A DNA stretch of 55,550 nt from Escherichia phage CSP1C. Below, piece by piece: positions 38,949 to 47,350 of the stretch. The DNA lies in sequence record PQ202980; one strand, given 5' to 3'. Position 1 is the stretch's first letter; each line of letters opens with the position of its first letter. The notes beneath the pieces are model-generated. The model saw only the letters and a program-made list of their open reading frames with translations, did not search any database and was not told the origin of the DNA. Position numbers and translations under genes: made by a program.

Positions 38949-39416
38949 TTATTGAATTGAACCGCGATCAATTAACCATTGTTTCGCGTGAGCTTTAAAA
39001 ATAATGCGATAGTCATCAAGACTAATCTCCGCGCGGATGGAATCTTTAACTTCGTACCACTGCCACTCACCATTGCTAAAGACAACTGGATTGAGTGGTA
39101 GAACAACCTTCCATCCTTTACGTTCTATTTTATACATCAGAACTGGATATCTGCCAATCTCTTTAGCGGATTGAACAGTCTGCTTCCACCATGTGTTCAC
39201 CTGTGGCGTAGCATGGTTTTTTACTTCAACCGCATGGTGGCATGTATTGCTAATATCGCAACCACCGACCGCACTTTGATTCTGGTTACGCTGAGCAATA
39301 GGTTTCTCCGGTAACTGCATCCCCAGCTCTGCGTAGATTTCGGCATAAATTGCATTAAAGAAATCGCATACTTCCCGCTCACCGCGTTGACCTTTAGCGC
39401 GAATATTTACTGCCAT
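38949..39416 (-). CDS. putative PD-(D/E)xK Holliday-junction resolvase-like nuclease
   Basis: ATG 39416 with SD GGAG; N-terminal AKGQRGERE followed by D...EVK arrangement. Confidence 0.45.
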   Translation of the reverse strand: MAVNIRAKGQRGEREVCDFFNAIYAEIYAELGMQLPEKPIAQRNQNQSAVGGCDISNTCHHAVEVKNHATPQVNTWWKQTVQSAKEIGRYPVLMYKIERKGWKVVLPLNPVVFSNGEWQWYEVKDSIRAEISLDDYRIIFKAHAKQWLIDRGSIQ

Positions 39417-39489
39417 GTTTGTCTCCATAACTTTAATGTAAAACACTTCATAAAGAATTTTATATTGAAGTTCTGTTGATCTCAAGGAA

Positions 39490-39520
39490 CAAAAAAGCCC
39501 AGGCATAAGGATTCCTGGGC
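39490..39520 (-). terminator. rho-independent terminator
   Basis: GCCCAGG cataaggatt CCTGGGC stem followed on the minus strand by TTTTTT. Confidence 0.65.
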
Positions 39521-39833
39521 TCTCTTGATTGTCGGATAGCTTACTTTGACTGCCGTCTTCGTCTATCCTGGCCTACTTGTACAGCCTCGCCAAAGGCTGG
39601 TGACGGTTTGGTACATCTGGCGCCGTCGAGTTAAACATCGTTCACGTCGTTCAGTAAGTTGCGGGTTTATCCTGTCCGCTCCAGGAAGCCCAGCGAAAGT
39701 AGTTGCTGTAAGGAGGTACAGCTACCGCTTTCAAGGGCTTGAGTTAAGCATCGTTCACTAAGTTAATGTTGTTAAATTGTTAAACCTCGTTAACTGTGGT
39801 TATCTTAAAGGATGCAGTCTTGAATGGCAAGCT

Positions 39834-40148
39834 TCAATTTTGCGCGGTTCCCTTTGCCGCTTTTGGTGCTAAAGTACCATCATTTAACATCAACTCAAAA
39901 CCTGTTACTTGATCGGTTGGAACAATAGGGTAATTCATGATAGCCATGTGGATACGACACCCTCCATCACATTCGTCAATGTATTCACTACCCCAATAGT
40001 ATAAATGACCATCTCTTCGAATATCCATTGCTGTAGGGAAATCTACAAGAATTCTTTTGATTTCTTTTCGTCCTTCTTTATGCAGATTAGTTTCAATACG
40101 GATAAGCTCCGCATAAATTGCTTCACAGATAGTATTTACAATACTCAT
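39834..40148 (-). CDS. hypothetical protein
   Basis: 104 aa ORF; start overlaps upstream gene stop. Confidence 0.45.
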   Translation of the reverse strand: MSIVNTICEAIYAELIRIETNLHKEGRKEIKRILVDFPTAMDIRRDGHLYYWGSEYIDECDGGCRIHMAIMNYPIVPTDQVTGFELMLNDGTLAPKAAKGTAQN

Positions 40149-40552
40149 TTTTCATTCCTTACAATTTCATTAGCTTCGTTCCACATAATTTCCCCGTACT
40201 TGTCAATGCAAGATCGAGCAAAATACCCATCACCATAGCAGAAATTCATCATGCTGCGATACTTACCCTTACCCTGAATGCGACGAGCATCGTCCAGACA
40301 CTTAGCGGACGGCATTCTTTTACCCGAGGCAGCTTTTTGGACCTTTTCTTCCGTGGCAGCTTTTTGGTCTTTTATTTTACCGTTCATAAAGCGATAGCCG
40401 TTTTTTCTAGCAACGGAACGGGCTTCATCTTCAGTAATCATAAATACTGTATGATACCCTGGCTCCAGAATTTCCGTCTCGGTTACGCAACCATAACCGA
40501 CTTTCATATGAAGATGACCAATATTCATTTCAAAGTAATGTAAGTATTTCAT
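40145..40552 (-). CDS. hypothetical protein
   Basis: 135 aa from ATG 40552 with SD GAGGTG. Confidence 0.45.
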   Translation of the reverse strand: MKYLHYFEMNIGHLHMKVGYGCVTETEILEPGYHTVFMITEDEARSVARKNGYRFMNGKIKDQKAATEEKVQKAASGKRMPSAKCLDDARRIQGKGKYRSMMNFCYGDGYFARSCIDKYGEIMWNEANEIVRNEK

Positions 40553-40793
40553 TTTACACCTCATAATATATACATAAACCAGAAATAACCAGCTACGAAA
40601 ATGATTCCAGCGAATAATTTTAAGATCTCGAACATTGTTCCCTCCGTTAACTTTATGCTGTAAGTATAGCAGGACTTGAGATGTATGCAACAACTTTAGA
40701 CTTGAAATGCATCTATAAAATAGCACGATTTGCCTTTACATCTGATCAGTCTAACTGTACTATTAACTCATAAGCAAAACGGAGGATTACAAA

Positions 40794-41018
40794 ATGGTCA
40801 TGCTGAATAAAGTATATAGCACAATGGGCGCGGATTATAAAGTTGTACGTCACCCGCGTACTGGCAAATTTGAAGCATATATCCGTCCAATGGGTGAAGG
40901 TTGGATGTATTACGGTACTTATGACGACGCTGAGCAAGCTTATGAAGAAGCGGAAAGTGCAGCGGAAGCATCCGAAATTATGGCAAGGTACGACGTCGAT
41001 GATTACTATCTCAACTAA
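40794..41018 (+). CDS. AP2-like DNA-binding domain protein
   Basis: YKVVRHPRTGKFEAYIRPMGEGWMYYGTYDDAEQA matches the AP2 pattern; SD GGAGG; lone + strand gene inside minus block. Confidence 0.5.
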   Translation: MVMLNKVYSTMGADYKVVRHPRTGKFEAYIRPMGEGWMYYGTYDDAEQAYEEAESAAEASEIMARYDVDDYYLN

Positions 41019-41050
41019 CAATAAAGGGCCGAAAGGCCCTTTATTTATTT
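41018..41050. terminator. bidirectional rho-independent terminator
   Basis: AAGGGCC gaaa GGCCCTT stem with flanking T-tracts on both strands; convergent genes. Confidence 0.7.
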
Positions 41051-43381
41051 GCTTAAGTCTTTGAAAACACTCTCAATTGACTCGTCTATATACCATCCCA
41101 ACCCCCTGAAATTACGCTTCAATGCATCCTCACGCGTAACCGGAACAAGCGCGCCCATGTCTACAAGTTGTTTGATAGTGAGGTCTGTTGCAGTACCTGC
41201 TCCCATCCTGTGATTCTTGAATGCTGCTAACCCGTAGGTTCTGCGTGTGATAGTTGCCTTCGGAATAATACCGTCAACTCGCAGCTCCTTACGATCACAT
41301 GCAATTTTACCGCCAAGATAATCTTTGCAGACCTGACAGATAGCCTTCACACGCGTTTCATCATCACCGCCAATAGTACCTTTTTCCCATGCATTGATCA
41401 TGATGTCCTGTCCATGCGTAACAAAATCTACCGCCCATTGCATGTGATTGGGCTGAACGACAGGATTGATCCAGTTTTCCCCAACTGCTAACAGGGATGC
41501 AAGACGCAGAGCTTTAAGGTGCGCACGGTTCCACGGCTGACGGATAGCTTCGTCTTTAGTTGCGTTAATGTGTTCATCACACAGCAAGTTAAACTCCCGT
41601 TCAATCCTTTCCGCTTCAGGGCTTAACTGGACGGTAACGGTCTGGAACTTCGCCATTGTCACTAACGTGTGGTTAACAAGATGGCACACCATGTCCTTTA
41701 ATTGCTGTGGCATTGTGATTTCAGGATTTTCGTTTGCAGGAACACGATCCCCTTCATATTGCACAATGTGGAAACGGGACAAGAAACCGTCTTCCATCAT
41801 TTCACGTGTTAACGCTTCAAAGAATGTGTCCGGTGTTGTTTCGCCCAGTATGCTGAACGCCACCCCTTCCATTGTCTTGGTATTATTAGCCTTATCAGAA
41901 TACCCAATACCGCCAACAACATCCATCGCACCAGATTTTTGATACACATCTGTAATAGTTTGCTTCAGGGTATAGTTTGCAGTGCCAGGTTGAGCCGTTG
42001 CCATACCTTTAATGGTTTTACCAAACTCACCGTTAATATTCACAAACGAAGTATGATCCGCAAAACTTTTACGCAAGGCAGGACCGGAAGCATAGTTAGT
42101 CATGTCTACAAATTCATGCACTTGCGGTAATTGCTCGCCTACTTGCTTGCAGATATAGCTGGGCCCGGCGTGAAGCATTTCTTTGCCCACACCTGATCGG
42201 GCAATGAGCACAAAGTAACCGTTCAGCCCTGTGTTGGTGATAGTATTCCACACCTTGCCGCATACGCCTGACAAGAATGCTAACGATGCAGTGATTGCAA
42301 TTTCTTTCACCGGACGCTGCGATGCTTTGTAGATATACTTCGCAAGCTCACCAGCAAGTCCCGGCGGCCATTCAATAGCTGTTGCATCAATGGACGTGCT
42401 TTCTGCAACTACTATTTCACCGGACGGGCTGACTGTGGTTACAGGCATTTCCGTTACCTGCTGCATTGCACTGTGTGCGGCTTGCATACGAGCAGCGTAA
42501 TCCCGCGCCAGCGCCGCTACGTTTTCCTGGGCAATGCGCTCACGCTCCATGCGACCGCGGCACATACGCAAACAACGGTCAATATGAACATTGTTCTTAT
42601 TAGCCTTCTCACGTTTACCCAGTGCACTGTAACGGAACAGACGACGACATTGCTCATTACTTTCTGTGTAGAATGCATACATAGAGATAAGAGCAAGGTC
42701 TGCTTCAGACTGGGACGGGAATCCCATTTCAACCCATTCACCATTGAATAGGCGTGCATACTTATCGCCGTTGTCTGCTTCAAGCGCACGCTGGTGAATG
42801 GTTGCATCGTCTTCTACCGGATCTTTTTCTACCAGTTCAATTTCATATGTCTTGCGCTGAAGATCAATTTCATTCACAAGCATAGTAAGGTAATGATCAC
42901 GTTCGGCAACTGGTTTATTGTAGACAGGATTGCCCGTGCAGATAATAAAACGCTCCTGACTATAAACCTCGACACCATCACGTCGGCGACCTTTACCGAT
43001 CTTCCCTCTTAACCACAGGTGGACGCCCAAGCCTGAGCGACTTACTTCGGTGTAAGTATCGAACGCGGTCATGATCTGTTCGAAGCGGCGCAACTGTTCC
43101 GGCGTCGTGTGCTTCTTGGGATCAGGTTCATTGGTAGCGTTCTTCACATCCAGGTCGATGCAGGTGAACGGGTCTTGCGCAGTAAGCACGAAGCCAATAT
43201 AAGGTTTATTGAAATGAGCGGCGCAACCTTTGGCAGCTTCAAACGTCATAAGCATATCCGGATCGGTAACGTCCGCCGCCATCAAACGTCCAATATCGTT
43301 GTCCCATACAAGCGGCTTTTTATCCGCATCGGCGACCGCCCATTGGGGGAAAGCTTTAATTTCAGCGGGAAACAGTTCCAT
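41045..43381 (-). CDS. DNA primase (primase-polymerase-type N-terminal domain) with C-terminal P-loop NTPase domain
   Basis: 778 aa; size and position in replication module; putative P-loop around ARSGVGKE. Domain assignment by eye only. Confidence 0.55.
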   Translation of the reverse strand: MELFPAEIKAFPQWAVADADKKPLVWDNDIGRLMAADVTDPDMLMTFEAAKGCAAHFNKPYIGFVLTAQDPFTCIDLDVKNATNEPDPKKHTTPEQLRRFEQIMTAFDTYTEVSRSGLGVHLWLRGKIGKGRRRDGVEVYSQERFIICTGNPVYNKPVAERDHYLTMLVNEIDLQRKTYEIELVEKDPVEDDATIHQRALEADNGDKYARLFNGEWVEMGFPSQSEADLALISMYAFYTESNEQCRRLFRYSALGKREKANKNNVHIDRCLRMCRGRMERERIAQENVAALARDYAARMQAAHSAMQQVTEMPVTTVSPSGEIVVAESTSIDATAIEWPPGLAGELAKYIYKASQRPVKEIAITASLAFLSGVCGKVWNTITNTGLNGYFVLIARSGVGKEMLHAGPSYICKQVGEQLPQVHEFVDMTNYASGPALRKSFADHTSFVNINGEFGKTIKGMATAQPGTANYTLKQTITDVYQKSGAMDVVGGIGYSDKANNTKTMEGVAFSILGETTPDTFFEALTREMMEDGFLSRFHIVQYEGDRVPANENPEITMPQQLKDMVCHLVNHTLVTMAKFQTVTVQLSPEAERIEREFNLLCDEHINATKDEAIRQPWNRAHLKALRLASLLAVGENWINPVVQPNHMQWAVDFVTHGQDIMINAWEKGTIGGDDETRVKAICQVCKDYLGGKIACDRKELRVDGIIPKATITRRTYGLAAFKNHRMGAGTATDLTIKQLVDMGALVPVTREDALKRNFRGLGWYIDESIESVFKDLSK

Positions 43382-43387
43382 ATTTAA

Positions 43388-43591
43388 TTAAGACCTCCGA
43401 CGCTTATCGCCTTGCATCTTTTCCAGGACGGGTTCTGCTAATGAACGTTTATAGATGTACACGCTACCGATTTTAATAGCGCCGGGAATGCATTCGCGCA
43501 TTCTGGAGAGCTTAAATTTTGAAATACCGAACCGGTTTTCAATTTCGGTAGTTGTTATATAGTTGTGATTAAATTCTTCGACGTGGGTCAT
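43388..43591 (-). CDS. HTH DNA-binding protein (excisionase/AlpA-like HTH_17)
   Basis: ITTTEIENRFGISKFKLSRM...IKIGSVYIYKRSL matches the Xis/AlpA-type helix-turn-helix pattern; SD AAGGAGG. Confidence 0.55.
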   Translation of the reverse strand: MTHVEEFNHNYITTTEIENRFGISKFKLSRMRECIPGAIKIGSVYIYKRSLAEPVLEKMQGDKRRRS

Positions 43592-43652
43592 AGCTCCTCC
43601 TTTGTCCGCACACTATACACAGATAAGAGGAGCCATTGCAATGCGTTTTGCG

Positions 43653-44399
43653 TTACAGGATATGGGGGCAATAATATTTATCCATAACAAACTGAAAAAC
43701 TTCTTCAGGTGTGCGGTCATTACGAAGTTCAATCATATGATTGTCCAGCCATTGCAAACTCTCCTCAGCCTTATCTCTATTATTAAAGTGCAATAGCGCT
43801 GAAGGTGTATCGCCATGAGGTATAACTTCAAGTCTAAATACACCTGTTTCCAGATGAGTTATGTTGCAAGTCGGCCAAACGCCACGGTTTTCCCATATAG
43901 AAGGCGCATCCTCAAACCTGCATGAGCTATACCATTTATTGCGAAGAGATGTGATCTCCTTACTTGTTAACGGGGCACCCTTAACCCTTTCATGCTCCTC
44001 CAGCCAGGCTTTAAATTTTGGGTTAGGTTTGCGCCCGGGCTTCCCACCTTTCGCCTTTGCGCTTTCTTTAAACGCTTGCTCATACGGGTCTGATCCCTTG
44101 CCCATGTGGTAATTGAATTTGCCCGTATAGCTGCGAAGCTCTTTGGCATCCAGCTCACGCCCCAACTTATCGCTCACCCATGTAAGGAAAGCCTCCCGCT
44201 CTGCATCCAGCTTACCAGCTTTCGGTCTTACAGATTTTTTAACTGGCTGCTCCACATCCTCGTTGAAGTAATCTTCTACCATAGCAAGCGCCTGTGATTT
44301 GGTTGGTGCGCCACGCAACCGTGAGCACGCTTGCACAACCCAAGCCGCGAAGCACATATCTTTAACCACAGTGTTGGAGGTAATAATTTCTTCACTCAT
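43653..44399 (-). CDS. hypothetical protein
   Basis: About 248 aa from ATG 44399 with SD AGGTGGA. Confidence 0.45.
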   Translation of the reverse strand: MSEEIITSNTVVKDMCFAAWVVQACSRLRGAPTKSQALAMVEDYFNEDVEQPVKKSVRPKAGKLDAEREAFLTWVSDKLGRELDAKELRSYTGKFNYHMGKGSDPYEQAFKESAKAKGGKPGRKPNPKFKAWLEEHERVKGAPLTSKEITSLRNKWYSSCRFEDAPSIWENRGVWPTCNITHLETGVFRLEVIPHGDTPSALLHFNNRDKAEESLQWLDNHMIELRNDRTPEEVFQFVMDKYYCPHIL

Positions 44400-44441
44400 A
44401 ATCCACCTATACGCGTAGAAAGAAAGGTAATCATATAACAA

Positions 44442-45105
44442 AGTTTTTGTAATCGCAAAACCTTCGCAAAACTTTGTCTTTCCTGCATTATATTAAACGA
44501 TAGTGCTAGTGGCCAGCATAGTGGCATCACCTCTTATAGTGCGCCGTTACTGGCTTCGCTATAGTGTGCCACTATACGCTCACTATACACTAATAACTAA
44601 TTTTATTTTGTTTAGTGGTAATAAAGTTTTGGGTTTTTGGGGGGGACCCCTATATATCCCGGGAAAAACAAAGAAATAGTAGTAGTAGTGAAAAACATAG
44701 TGAAATGCCACTATCCTCACTATCACTACCAATTTAATGTAATTCATGGGGGTGTCTATGTACCAAAAACCTAAAACTTTCAGTCAACAGGCTAAAAACG
44801 GATAGAAACTAAAAGTTAATAAGTAATAACATAAATATATATAAAATAAGGATTTATTAGTAATGTATATAGTACCTATTGATATTATTTGAATGTTTTT
44901 GGGTCATTGTTAAAAAGTCCCAAAACTCGCAAAACCTGAACGGATGCAGATCAAAAATGAGAAATCAAGTGCTTTTGAGGGAAATTTATTGAACTATTGT
45001 GATCGGAAGGTATATCAAGCTATAATGCGCTTAATCGCGGGATATTGGAGGAGGACTTTATTGCGCGGTTAACCGGACCAGTAGGAGGGCTGGCCCGGAA
45101 GTAGT
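44442..45105. promoter_or_regulatory. AT-rich repeat-dense non-coding region (candidate operator cluster / origin)
   Basis: About 660 bp without credible ORF; at least 6 CACTATA/TATAGTG heptamers, 3 copies of TCGCAAAAC, (AGT)4, a G7 run and a TATAAT-like box. Confidence 0.5.
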
Positions 45106-45432
45106 TTAGAGTTGTACAGGTGTGAAGTGGGCTAGCGTATCGTCGGACATAATACCCGACAGTTTTTCGCTTATCCAGTCGGACCAAATGCTATCCGGTT
45201 CCTGGCGGTGCACAAACCAGATTTCGGATGTGCCTTCTTTGCGCATCGGTTGCACTTCTGCAAGGAACTTGTCCTGCATAAGGCGGGTGAAGCAGACGCT
45301 GGTCATTGGAACCGGCTTTTCGTCTTTATTGTAATAAGGGAATAATATTTTATTTCCGAAGTCGGCAACTTCATAAACCGTTCCTTTACGAAGGCCTCTG
45401 ATGTCAGTGTAAGAGCGAATGAACTTTTTCAT
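45106..45432 (-). CDS. hypothetical protein
   Basis: 108 aa ORF. Confidence 0.45.
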   Translation of the reverse strand: MKKFIRSYTDIRGLRKGTVYEVADFGNKILFPYYNKDEKPVPMTSVCFTRLMQDKFLAEVQPMRKEGTSEIWFVHRQEPDSIWSDWISEKLSGIMSDDTLAHFTPVQL

Positions 45433-45434
45433 AT

Positions 45435-45611
45435 TTATTTCCTTACGAACACAGAGCCGACGAATAATGTTGACTGAGTGGCAGCTTGCTCGATTAATTC
45501 GCCAACAAGCTGGGACTGGTTTAGAGGTTTGAGGCCTTCTTTGGCGCGTGCTTCATTTACACGACGTTGAAGGTCTTTTAAGTATTGAGTTGCGAAGCTA
45601 TCTAATTGCAT
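45435..45611 (-). CDS. hypothetical small protein (58 aa, below ORF-track cutoff)
   Basis: ATG 45611 with SD AAGGA; tightly packed with neighbours. Confidence 0.35.
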   Translation of the reverse strand: MQLDSFATQYLKDLQRRVNEARAKEGLKPLNQSQLVGELIEQAATQSTLFVGSVFVRK

Positions 45612-45659
45612 CTTCTTATCCTTAGGGCTCCTGCAGAAGCCCGTCAGTGTGGTTATAGA

Positions 45660-45809
45660 TTATAGCGCTGCAAACATAAGCAGACGAATATTAACTGAAG
45701 TTTGGCTATTAAAGTCTTGACATTCTTTGATAATCTCTTCTTCACTTTTACCACTAAGTTTAGAATATTCTGTGATTGCTTGTTTTAATACAGAATCAAA
45801 ATTGTTCAT
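45660..45809 (-). CDS. hypothetical small protein (49 aa, below ORF-track cutoff)
   Basis: ATG 45809 with strong SD AAGGAGG at optimal spacing. Confidence 0.4.
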   Translation of the reverse strand: MNNFDSVLKQAITEYSKLSGKSEEEIIKECQDFNSQTSVNIRLLMFAAL

Positions 45810-47138: not shown

Positions 47139-47350
47139 GATGCAACCCTTAATGTGGTTAAGCAGTATTGCTTTGTTGAAGTAATAATAGCCTTGCATCG
47201 TGATATTGAATAGGCCAAAAGTGCTATTTTGATATTGTTTTGCATCTAGTGAAAATTATGCTTGCCCTGCATGTTTAGCACAAACGGCCTAATTAACATC
47301 ACATCATCTGGAGTATTCGCGCGGGCGCACACATGCTTATAAGGTGGTGC

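Follow-up and report, generated by a model that had tools for sequence, protein, structure and literature searches.

The closest known system to the small phage protein considered here is the AP2/ERF domain of plant proteins (PF00847), as found in AtERF1 (1GCC/2GCC), WRI1 (7WQ5), ERF096 (5WX9) and TEM1 (7ET4). The phage protein is the 74-residue product of CSP1_062, a gene annotated as hypothetical at positions 40794-41018 (+) of a 55,550-nucleotide stretch of DNA from Escherichia phage CSP1C (sequence record PQ202980), the whole of which is referred to below as the window. It differs from the plant domains in having an extra, strongly conserved N-terminal strand (MVMLNKVYS), and in being a stand-alone protein of a lytic enterobacterial phage with a predicted disordered tail rich in acidic and aromatic residues. 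The analysis presented here identifies CSP1_062 as a conserved single-gene transcription unit encoding what is probably a diverged relative of the AP2 domain, and tentatively favours a role for it as a small nucleic-acid-binding regulator.

The nearest functional precedent for an AP2 regulator in a phage is provided by the CasPRs. These phage proteins, in which CapR is joined to AP2, silence cas genes, and they depend on their AP2 domain both for recognising specific DNA sequences and for silencing transcription (bioRxiv 10.64898/2026.02.23.707548). The CasPRs are much larger than the CSP1 protein, they require the cysteine-rich CapR zinc domain, and they are encoded in acr loci of Bacillota prophages; whereas the CSP1 protein, from a lytic phage of Enterobacteriaceae, contains no cysteine, has no CapR domain, and leaves no room for a second domain. 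The phage HNH_3-AP2 endonucleases, such as SA80RD_62, SA80RD_69 and the enzyme of phage SWJM-02, share with CSP1_062 a domain superfamily, a phage gene pool and, in some relatives, a neighbourhood. In contrast to them, the CSP1 protein has no nuclease domain or nuclease neighbour, its gene is fixed in position and always present rather than sporadic, it is acidic and not basic overall, and its pairwise similarity to them is weak.

T7 Gp2, Ocr and AcrIIA4 are small acidic phage proteins, made early, which bind host or defence proteins. The CSP1 protein resembles them, by analogy only, in its small size, strong acidity, sheet-plus-helix architecture and early-type expression signals, and no significant sequence or structural match to T7 Gp2, Ocr or AcrIIA4 was found. 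Weak matches to AcrIIA4 families do occur over the sheet-plus-helix region (E 0.055-0.077), but they lie well below the respective thresholds (13.8 bits against 27 in Pfam; 13.5 against 40 in NCBIfam), and the acidic subgroup of the family gives no AcrIIA4 match. Stand-alone AP2-like phage proteins are already known, and the family to which CSP1_062 belongs has been catalogued without a function; what is new here is its acidity, its N-terminal extension, and the behaviour of the genomic slot that it occupies.

CSP1_062 is a conserved gene

The open reading frame (ORF) at 40794-41018 (+) translates into exactly the 74-residue sequence on which the original prediction was based, and the gene does run antiparallel to its neighbours, as was remarked then: a gene for a 24-residue peptide and CSP1_064 on its left, and a primase gene on its right, are all on the minus strand. 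The surrounding 5-kb region matches Cronobacter phage CSP1 (KY982929) at 100% identity, and Escherichia phages belonging to Seuratvirus (a genus of the subfamily Queuovirinae) at 86-97%. The counterparts of CSP1_062 include CPT_Seurat59 and bas22_0064, and the family phrog_22269 ('unknown function') matches it from end to end.

The gene is annotated in every related genome and is subject to purifying selection, the ratio of nonsynonymous to synonymous divergence (pN/pS) being about 0.1-0.2. Comparison with orthologues of the Seurat group gave a pS of about 0.12-0.16 and a pN of about 0.006-0.017, for a ratio of about 0.08 (in one pair, for example, pS 0.138 and pN 0.011), while comparison with an allele at 84% identity gave pS 0.447 and pN 0.093, for a ratio of 0.21. 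These figures are taken from individual pairs, the mean of all pairs having been set aside because the pair involving locus L015 was misaligned. Since it is annotated in all related genomes and is under purifying selection, CSP1_062 is a genuine conserved gene, and more than a chance ORF. No paper naming the protein or its accessions was found in the published literature. Defence-system and NCBIfam searches gave no meaningful match for the protein, and an Rfam scan of positions 39000-45800 at E≤1 revealed no structured-RNA family.

Relationship to the AP2 domain

The AP2-like signature previously proposed for the protein is present, but it is weak: Pfam PF00847 matches with 17.3 bits (E=0.0059), against a gathering threshold of 33.3 bits. 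Two HNH-endonuclease families in PHROG match the protein over their AP2 part only. A profile of the Seurat-type alleles, compared with the Protein Data Bank (PDB), found the second AP2 domain of WRI1 at E=4e-6 (24.5 bits for the best domain), with ERF096 (0.03) and AtERF1 (0.04) coming next among matches in the range 0.03-0.07; the alignments span residues 14-71 and include YRG-like and RAYD-like elements. An exhaustive profile search of 1.84 billion proteins returned 39 matches, five of them members or fragments of the family itself. When 20 of the 39 were scanned with Pfam, all 17 of the longer proteins proved to contain AP2, in 16 cases above threshold, and the other three, which are short family members, had no Pfam match. 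The second-best match, P0006 (3944 residues, E=2.5e-22), is an artefact, in that its score is made up of 29 repeats, each aligned at profile positions 4-16 with 1-5 bits; full-sequence E-values therefore overstate the evidence where repeat proteins are concerned.

Two AlphaFold2 models were obtained, with a mean predicted local distance difference test score (pLDDT) of 77.8 and 83.6, rising to 86-96 in the core. The predicted layout comprises strands at residues 7-9, 13-19, 26-32 and 38-43, a helix at 46-66, and a disordered acidic and aromatic tail at 67-74. As modelled, a three-stranded antiparallel sheet packed against a C-terminal helix reproduces the AP2 topology, to which an extra N-terminal strand has been added. 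AP2 homology is judged to be quite likely, and CSP1_062 is probably a diverged AP2 relative and not a member of Pfam grade, although the call is marginal. That there is no kinship with AP2, and that a generic small sheet-plus-helix protein has come to resemble it by chance or convergence, is considered rather improbable; this estimate stands apart from those attached below to the functional readings.

A second AP2-like domain was considered at the C-terminus of CSP1_059 (43653-44468 (-); residues about 200-240, ETGVFRLEVIPHGD...NNRDKAEE), which resembles AP2 to the eye, and was rejected as not significant, the similarity amounting to a BLASTP E of 0.008 in a single comparison and an hhalign E of 0.043 at a probability of 1%.

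Conserved residues, charge and tail

Among ten aligned alleles the residues M1, M3, L4, N5, D14, R31, W37, A49 and E61 are invariant, and K6, V7, Y8, S9, Y15, Y29, D44, E54 and Y72 are nearly so. HMMER alignments to AtERF1 place R31 opposite R162, W37 opposite R170, R19 opposite R150 and K16 opposite R147, while W154, R152, W172 and R170 of AtERF1 are replaced in the CSP1 protein by Thr, Pro, Tyr and Trp, respectively; the DNA contacts of AtERF1 are reportedly those described by Allen and colleagues in 1998. Judged from these alignments, Arg31 and Trp37 would sit on the canonical DNA-facing side of the sheet.

The CSP1 protein has a net charge of -7, compared with about +6 for the AtERF1 domain, and the charge is unevenly spread: the sheet half (residues 1-43) has six Lys/Arg to three Asp/Glu, and the helix and tail have one to eleven. 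Only in Seurat-type alleles is the sheet net positive. The tails vary, yet all of them end in acidic and aromatic residues (DVDDYYLN, DDYDYCY, DEPDYDFCY, SDFY, CEF).

Expression signals and regulatory neighbourhood

A ribosome-binding site, GGAGG, lies at 40781-40785 (+), 8 nt upstream of the ATG; it is annotated as such in Seurat and is kept at six of seven diverged loci, the exception being L017, which has CAAGG. Further upstream is a putative sigma70-like promoter at 40735-40763 (+), with nine of twelve consensus matches, which consists of a -35 element TTTACA (40735-40740), a 17-nt spacer, and a -10 element TACTAT (40758-40763). The -10 is retained in all diverged loci (as TAATAT in one of them), while the -35 and spacer differ between allele types; promoter function for this segment is suggested by its sequence. 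Within the spacer is the palindrome CTGATCAG (40742-40749), whose central GATC, a Dam site, occupies 40744-40747. The Seurat-type, L013 and L015 lineages have retained this GATC, and L014, L017 and STP-SP5 have lost it; the palindrome as a whole occurs only in CSP1.

Directly 5' of the -35 is a conserved A-rich element, AAAATAGCACGATTTGCC, at 40717-40734 (+), which is kept in most lineages and deleted in L015. A near copy, AAAATAGCACTTTTGGCC, occurs at 47213-47230 (-), ahead of another promoter-like site, and the two have in common the pattern AAAATAGCAC(N5)TGCC/GGCC immediately upstream of a weak -35. The element could be UP-element-like, or a site for a shared binding factor. The idea that its ATAGCAC motif is a repeated operator was discarded: there are six loose matches where 1.6 are expected, and only the one at 47213-47230 (-) is promoter-like, which is too few for a regulon.

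The intergenic segment of 158 bp between the divergent start codons (40636-40793) was aligned across seven lineages. On the minus strand it appears to contain the promoter of the next leftward unit, at 40663-40690 (-), with TTGCAT (40690-40685), 16 nt, and an extended -10 TGcTATACT (40671-40663). Conservation of the -10 region extends to each of the seven loci; this promoter, whose -35 has only three of six consensus matches, was absent from the promoter-scan list and was read from the sequence. Between the two divergent -35 elements lies a non-coding block of 21 bp, TTTAGACnTGAAAnnCATCTA (40695-40715), which is present as a single copy in the window and is nearly invariant across the seven lineages, in which the identity of the AP2-like protein drops as low as 40%. 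It is a candidate for a shared regulatory site. A regulon for this block was looked for and rejected, the block being single-copy and a recurrence of a 12-mer from it, at 43827, lying inside the coding sequence of CSP1_059. A replication origin in the 158-bp region was likewise discounted, the cumulative GC-skew minimum being at about 44-45.5 kb and not at 40.7 kb. A 30-residue ORF at 40681-40773 (+), annotated in some relatives as SA80RD_66 and bas21_0065, spans the conserved block and the promoter; because indels break its frame in the diverged loci, and because it overlaps the promoter, it is treated as spurious and is probably not a gene.

The divergent leftward unit opens with a gene at 40561-40635 (-) for the hydrophobic 24-residue peptide MFEILKLFAGIIFVAGYFWFMYIL; this gene has a GGAGG ribosome-binding site, and its product is 62-96% identical across all lineages. 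On the other side is the primase/helicase gene (41045-43381 (-)), whose product shows an NrS-1-type prim-pol helix bundle and DUF3987 in Pfam, and whose 3' end converges on CSP1_062. The two genes share an intrinsic terminator at 41020-41045, a GC-rich hairpin that serves both CSP1_062 (+) and the primase operon (-). It was previously described as a bidirectional terminator flanking the gene; the signals for two-way activity are indeed present, but the element lies on the 3' side only. The hairpin has a predicted stability of -17.3 kcal/mol (+) and -18.3 kcal/mol (-), with a z-score of about -5, none of 200 shuffled sequences being as stable, and there are U-runs on both strands. The annotations of Seurat and SA80RD record a terminator here in both orientations, and STP-SP5 shows compensatory changes in the stem (GGGCC/GGCCC to GGGTC/GACCC). 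CSP1_062 is a single-gene transcription unit, situated where the primase operon gives way to the next operon of the minus strand.

Distribution and mosaic evolution

The family is small, comprising about ten clusters at 90% identity among 5.8 billion proteins, and every cluster found on a long contig (about 40-60 kb) comes from one that resembles a phage genome. By tblastn, 34 phage records were found to contain the gene, 33 with an identity of 96-100% (31 of these being Escherichia phages); the remaining record, Salmonella phage STP-SP5, has an allele at 39-48% identity. Its position does not vary among the 34 records sharing the region or among the diverged metagenomic relatives, with synteny extending to those at 51-59% protein identity. 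At every locus examined the gene points towards the 3' end of the primase gene and has the same divergent promoter region upstream. Cronobacter-labelled CSP1 and Aeromonas-labelled SD04 are 97-100% identical in this region to one another and to coliphages such as Greed, and therefore the labels may not reflect different natural hosts.

The type of AP2-like allele is uncoupled from the neighbouring genes. Relative to CSP1, the primase of Seurat is 77.5% identical and its AP2-like protein 97%; the corresponding values are 98.8% and 84% for L013, 92% and 56% for L015, and 91% and 39% for STP-SP5. Recombination between the AP2-like gene and the primase gene is therefore indicated.

The same slot in other phages

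In Nonagvirus JenK1 (L020, 5076-5306) and Craquatrovirus PSTCR7 (L019, 4900-5079) a related primase gene likewise has after it, on the other strand, a gene for a small acidic protein, and the two have a terminator in common. For the proteins encoded in this slot, of 76 residues in JenK1 (phrog_17131) and 59 residues in PSTCR7, no homology to the AP2-like family was detected. The JenK1 5' untranslated region (5'UTR), CGGAGGAACACAAAATG, resembles that of CSP1.

Two Felix-O1-like Salmonella phages, SWJM-02 (L022, 2005-2700) and vB_SalM_SPJ41, contain a roughly 90% identical copy of positions 40547-40813 of the window, including in both a DNA copy, at about 90% identity, of the 24-residue peptide gene. 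There the rightward promoter drives an unrelated accessory gene of 127 residues. Downstream is a second, partial copy, in which only the promoter -10, the 5'UTR and 19 nt from the start of the AP2-like gene survive. Immediately adjoining it, in convergent orientation, is the gene for an HNH_3-AP2 endonuclease, the AP2 domain of which scores 45 bits. This arrangement suggests an endonuclease-associated transfer of the promoter cassette.

Possible functions of the CSP1_062 protein

It is tempting to suggest that CSP1_062 specifies a small early regulatory protein which binds nucleic acid through the face bearing Arg31 and Trp37, and this is the reading preferred here, if only tentatively as regards binding, target and effect alike. 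The gene would be transcribed from a host-type promoter of its own, with a strong ribosome-binding site and a two-way terminator, and its product would be a diverged AP2-like domain of an extra N-terminal strand, three antiparallel strands, a helix, and a flexible acidic and aromatic tail. The canonical AP2 sheet face would contact nucleic acid, by default double-stranded DNA, by means of the invariant Arg31 and Trp37 and, in the CSP1 allele, Arg19 and Lys25; and the best candidate for a target would be the adjacent 158-bp divergent promoter region with its 21-bp block. Nucleic-acid binding is preferred because almost all characterised AP2 domains bind nucleic acid and the conserved residues are on that face. 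A regulatory role at divergent promoters is favoured because the gene is arranged as a local regulator would be and because the CasPRs offer a precedent for silencing by a phage AP2 protein. Regulation was also among the roles put forward in the original prediction, and it is proposed here with the same reserve; taken as a whole, the interpretation given in that prediction is borne out in part. No Seuratvirus transcriptome was found in the published literature.

A number of observations weigh against this proposal. The evidence for AP2 is itself marginal: at E≤1 Pfam recognises AP2 in only two of ten family members (best E 0.0018), a broader family profile weakens the signal to E=0.05, the acidic STP-SP5 subgroup by itself gives none, and the E-values from the large library are sums of 7-21-bit matches on related repeats. 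The AP2 fold is predicted as far as the topology of the AlphaFold2 models goes, but Foldseek comparison of the better model with the PDB gave nothing significant, and no AP2 structure among the top 50. Acidity is common to all eleven alleles (net charge -2 to -12; pI 4.05-5.05); members of the STP-SP5 subgroup have a net negative charge on the sheet as well, and no more than three to five Lys/Arg in total; and only about three of the seven base-contacting positions of AtERF1 are retained. The 21-bp DNA block stays constant while the AP2-like protein falls to 40% identity, and no motif regulon turned up in the window. Lastly, the slot is filled by non-homologous small acidic proteins in related genera, and the two Felix-O1-like phages have the promoter region without the AP2-like gene.

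Several of the same facts can be read in another way, namely that the AP2-like scaffold no longer binds DNA and that the protein is an acidic effector, which would act early to decoy or inhibit some protein of the host or its defences by way of its aromatic sheet face and its acidic and aromatic tail, possibly as a mimic of nucleic acid. This is the chief alternative, though somewhat unlikely; it would account for the fact that every allele is acidic and that some have lost basic residues, for an allele pattern that seems to follow the host, for the unrelated acidic proteins that fill the slot elsewhere, and for the promoter cassette being used again with other cargo. It fits less well with a gene that, unlike typical anti-defence cargo, is never absent from a Seuratvirus genome, with the invariance of Arg31 and Trp37 on the canonical nucleic-acid-binding face, or with the lack of significant similarity to known inhibitors, the AcrIIA4 matches being far below threshold; and no partner protein was identified. 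A more specific version holds that a DNA-binding AP2 scaffold has been turned into an acidic, aromatic-rich decoy for a host or defence protein within a conserved slot 3' of the primase gene, made up of promoter, small acidic gene and two-way terminator, which Queuovirinae and Craquatrovirus fill with unrelated small acidic proteins and from which the promoter cassette has moved into Felix-O1-like phages; this version must be regarded as doubtful, but if true it would make of the slot a new site for anti-host cargo.

The C-terminal tails of SSB, T7 gp2.5 and gp4 dock onto replication proteins. The position of CSP1_062 might similarly reflect a role as a replisome accessory tied to the primase, the sheet binding DNA or single-stranded DNA and the tail docking onto a replication protein. 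Convergence upon the primase 3' end is constant and extends to lineages where the protein is at 40% identity, a small acidic convergent gene is also found beside the related primase genes of Nonagvirus and Craquatrovirus, and every tail ends in Asp/Glu plus Tyr/Phe. However, the comparison of tails is an analogy, the AP2-like allele type varies independently of the primase allele, the related primase gene of Pseudomonas phage NP1 has no such convergent neighbour, the GC-skew minimum (about 44-45.5 kb) is away from the gene, and the protein is too small and too acidic for a known single-strand-binding fold. Such a role is accordingly thought improbable.

The proposal in the original prediction that the protein is an orphan DNA-binding module of a homing endonuclease is not supported for CSP1_062. 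Such a module would be either a decaying relic or a domesticated helper or repressor, acting in trans, derived from an HNH-AP2 endonuclease. The possibility is not without foundation in the surroundings: mobile HNH_3 endonucleases, with or without AP2, occupy variable sites around the primase gene and the leftward unit in Seuratvirus relatives (L001 2054-2536 and 6590-7114; L004 3207-3761; examples are SA80RD_62, SA80RD_69 and the HNH_3 gene of STP-SP5), the two from SA80RD being among those beside the primase gene; PHROG HNH families match the protein over their own AP2 region; the truncated remnant of the gene in SWJM-02 abuts an HNH_3-AP2 endonuclease; and CapR and the CasPRs are a precedent for domesticating endonuclease DNA-binding domains. 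CSP1, however, has no endonuclease at the corresponding sites. When an HNH or GIY-YIG partner was sought in related phages, none was fused and none consistently adjacent, and neither CSP1 nor most of its relatives show a nuclease joined to the protein or encoded alongside, the neighbours being the primase and 24-residue peptide genes. Nor was sporadic presence or absence seen among relatives, the gene occurring in 34 of the 34 records that share the region, and hhalign comparisons with the AP2 domains of resident endonucleases gave E-values of 0.0063, 0.001 and 0.037 at probabilities of only 1-21%, the first two lying at 6-21%. A recent endonuclease relic is excluded by the lack of a nuclease partner, the universal presence of the gene, purifying selection upon it, its own promoter and terminator, and this weak similarity. 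An endonuclease-derived module is considered very improbable as a separate reading, and an ancient domestication, though conceivable, would merge with the preferred explanation of a small nucleic-acid-binding regulator.

Significance

These results provide a first, cautious assignment for phrog_22269, whose members are annotated only as 'hypothetical' in all 34 records sharing the region, and show that the label of orphan homing-endonuclease module is wrong for CSP1_062. If the protein binds DNA, it would be a candidate early regulator in a group of phages whose transcription programme is unstudied, and which includes the BASEL phages Bas21-24. If instead it binds protein, the AP2 fold would have been put to a new use that does not involve DNA binding, and the slot would be worth screening for anti-host functions. 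Under either reading, the interest of the finding is modest and specialist.
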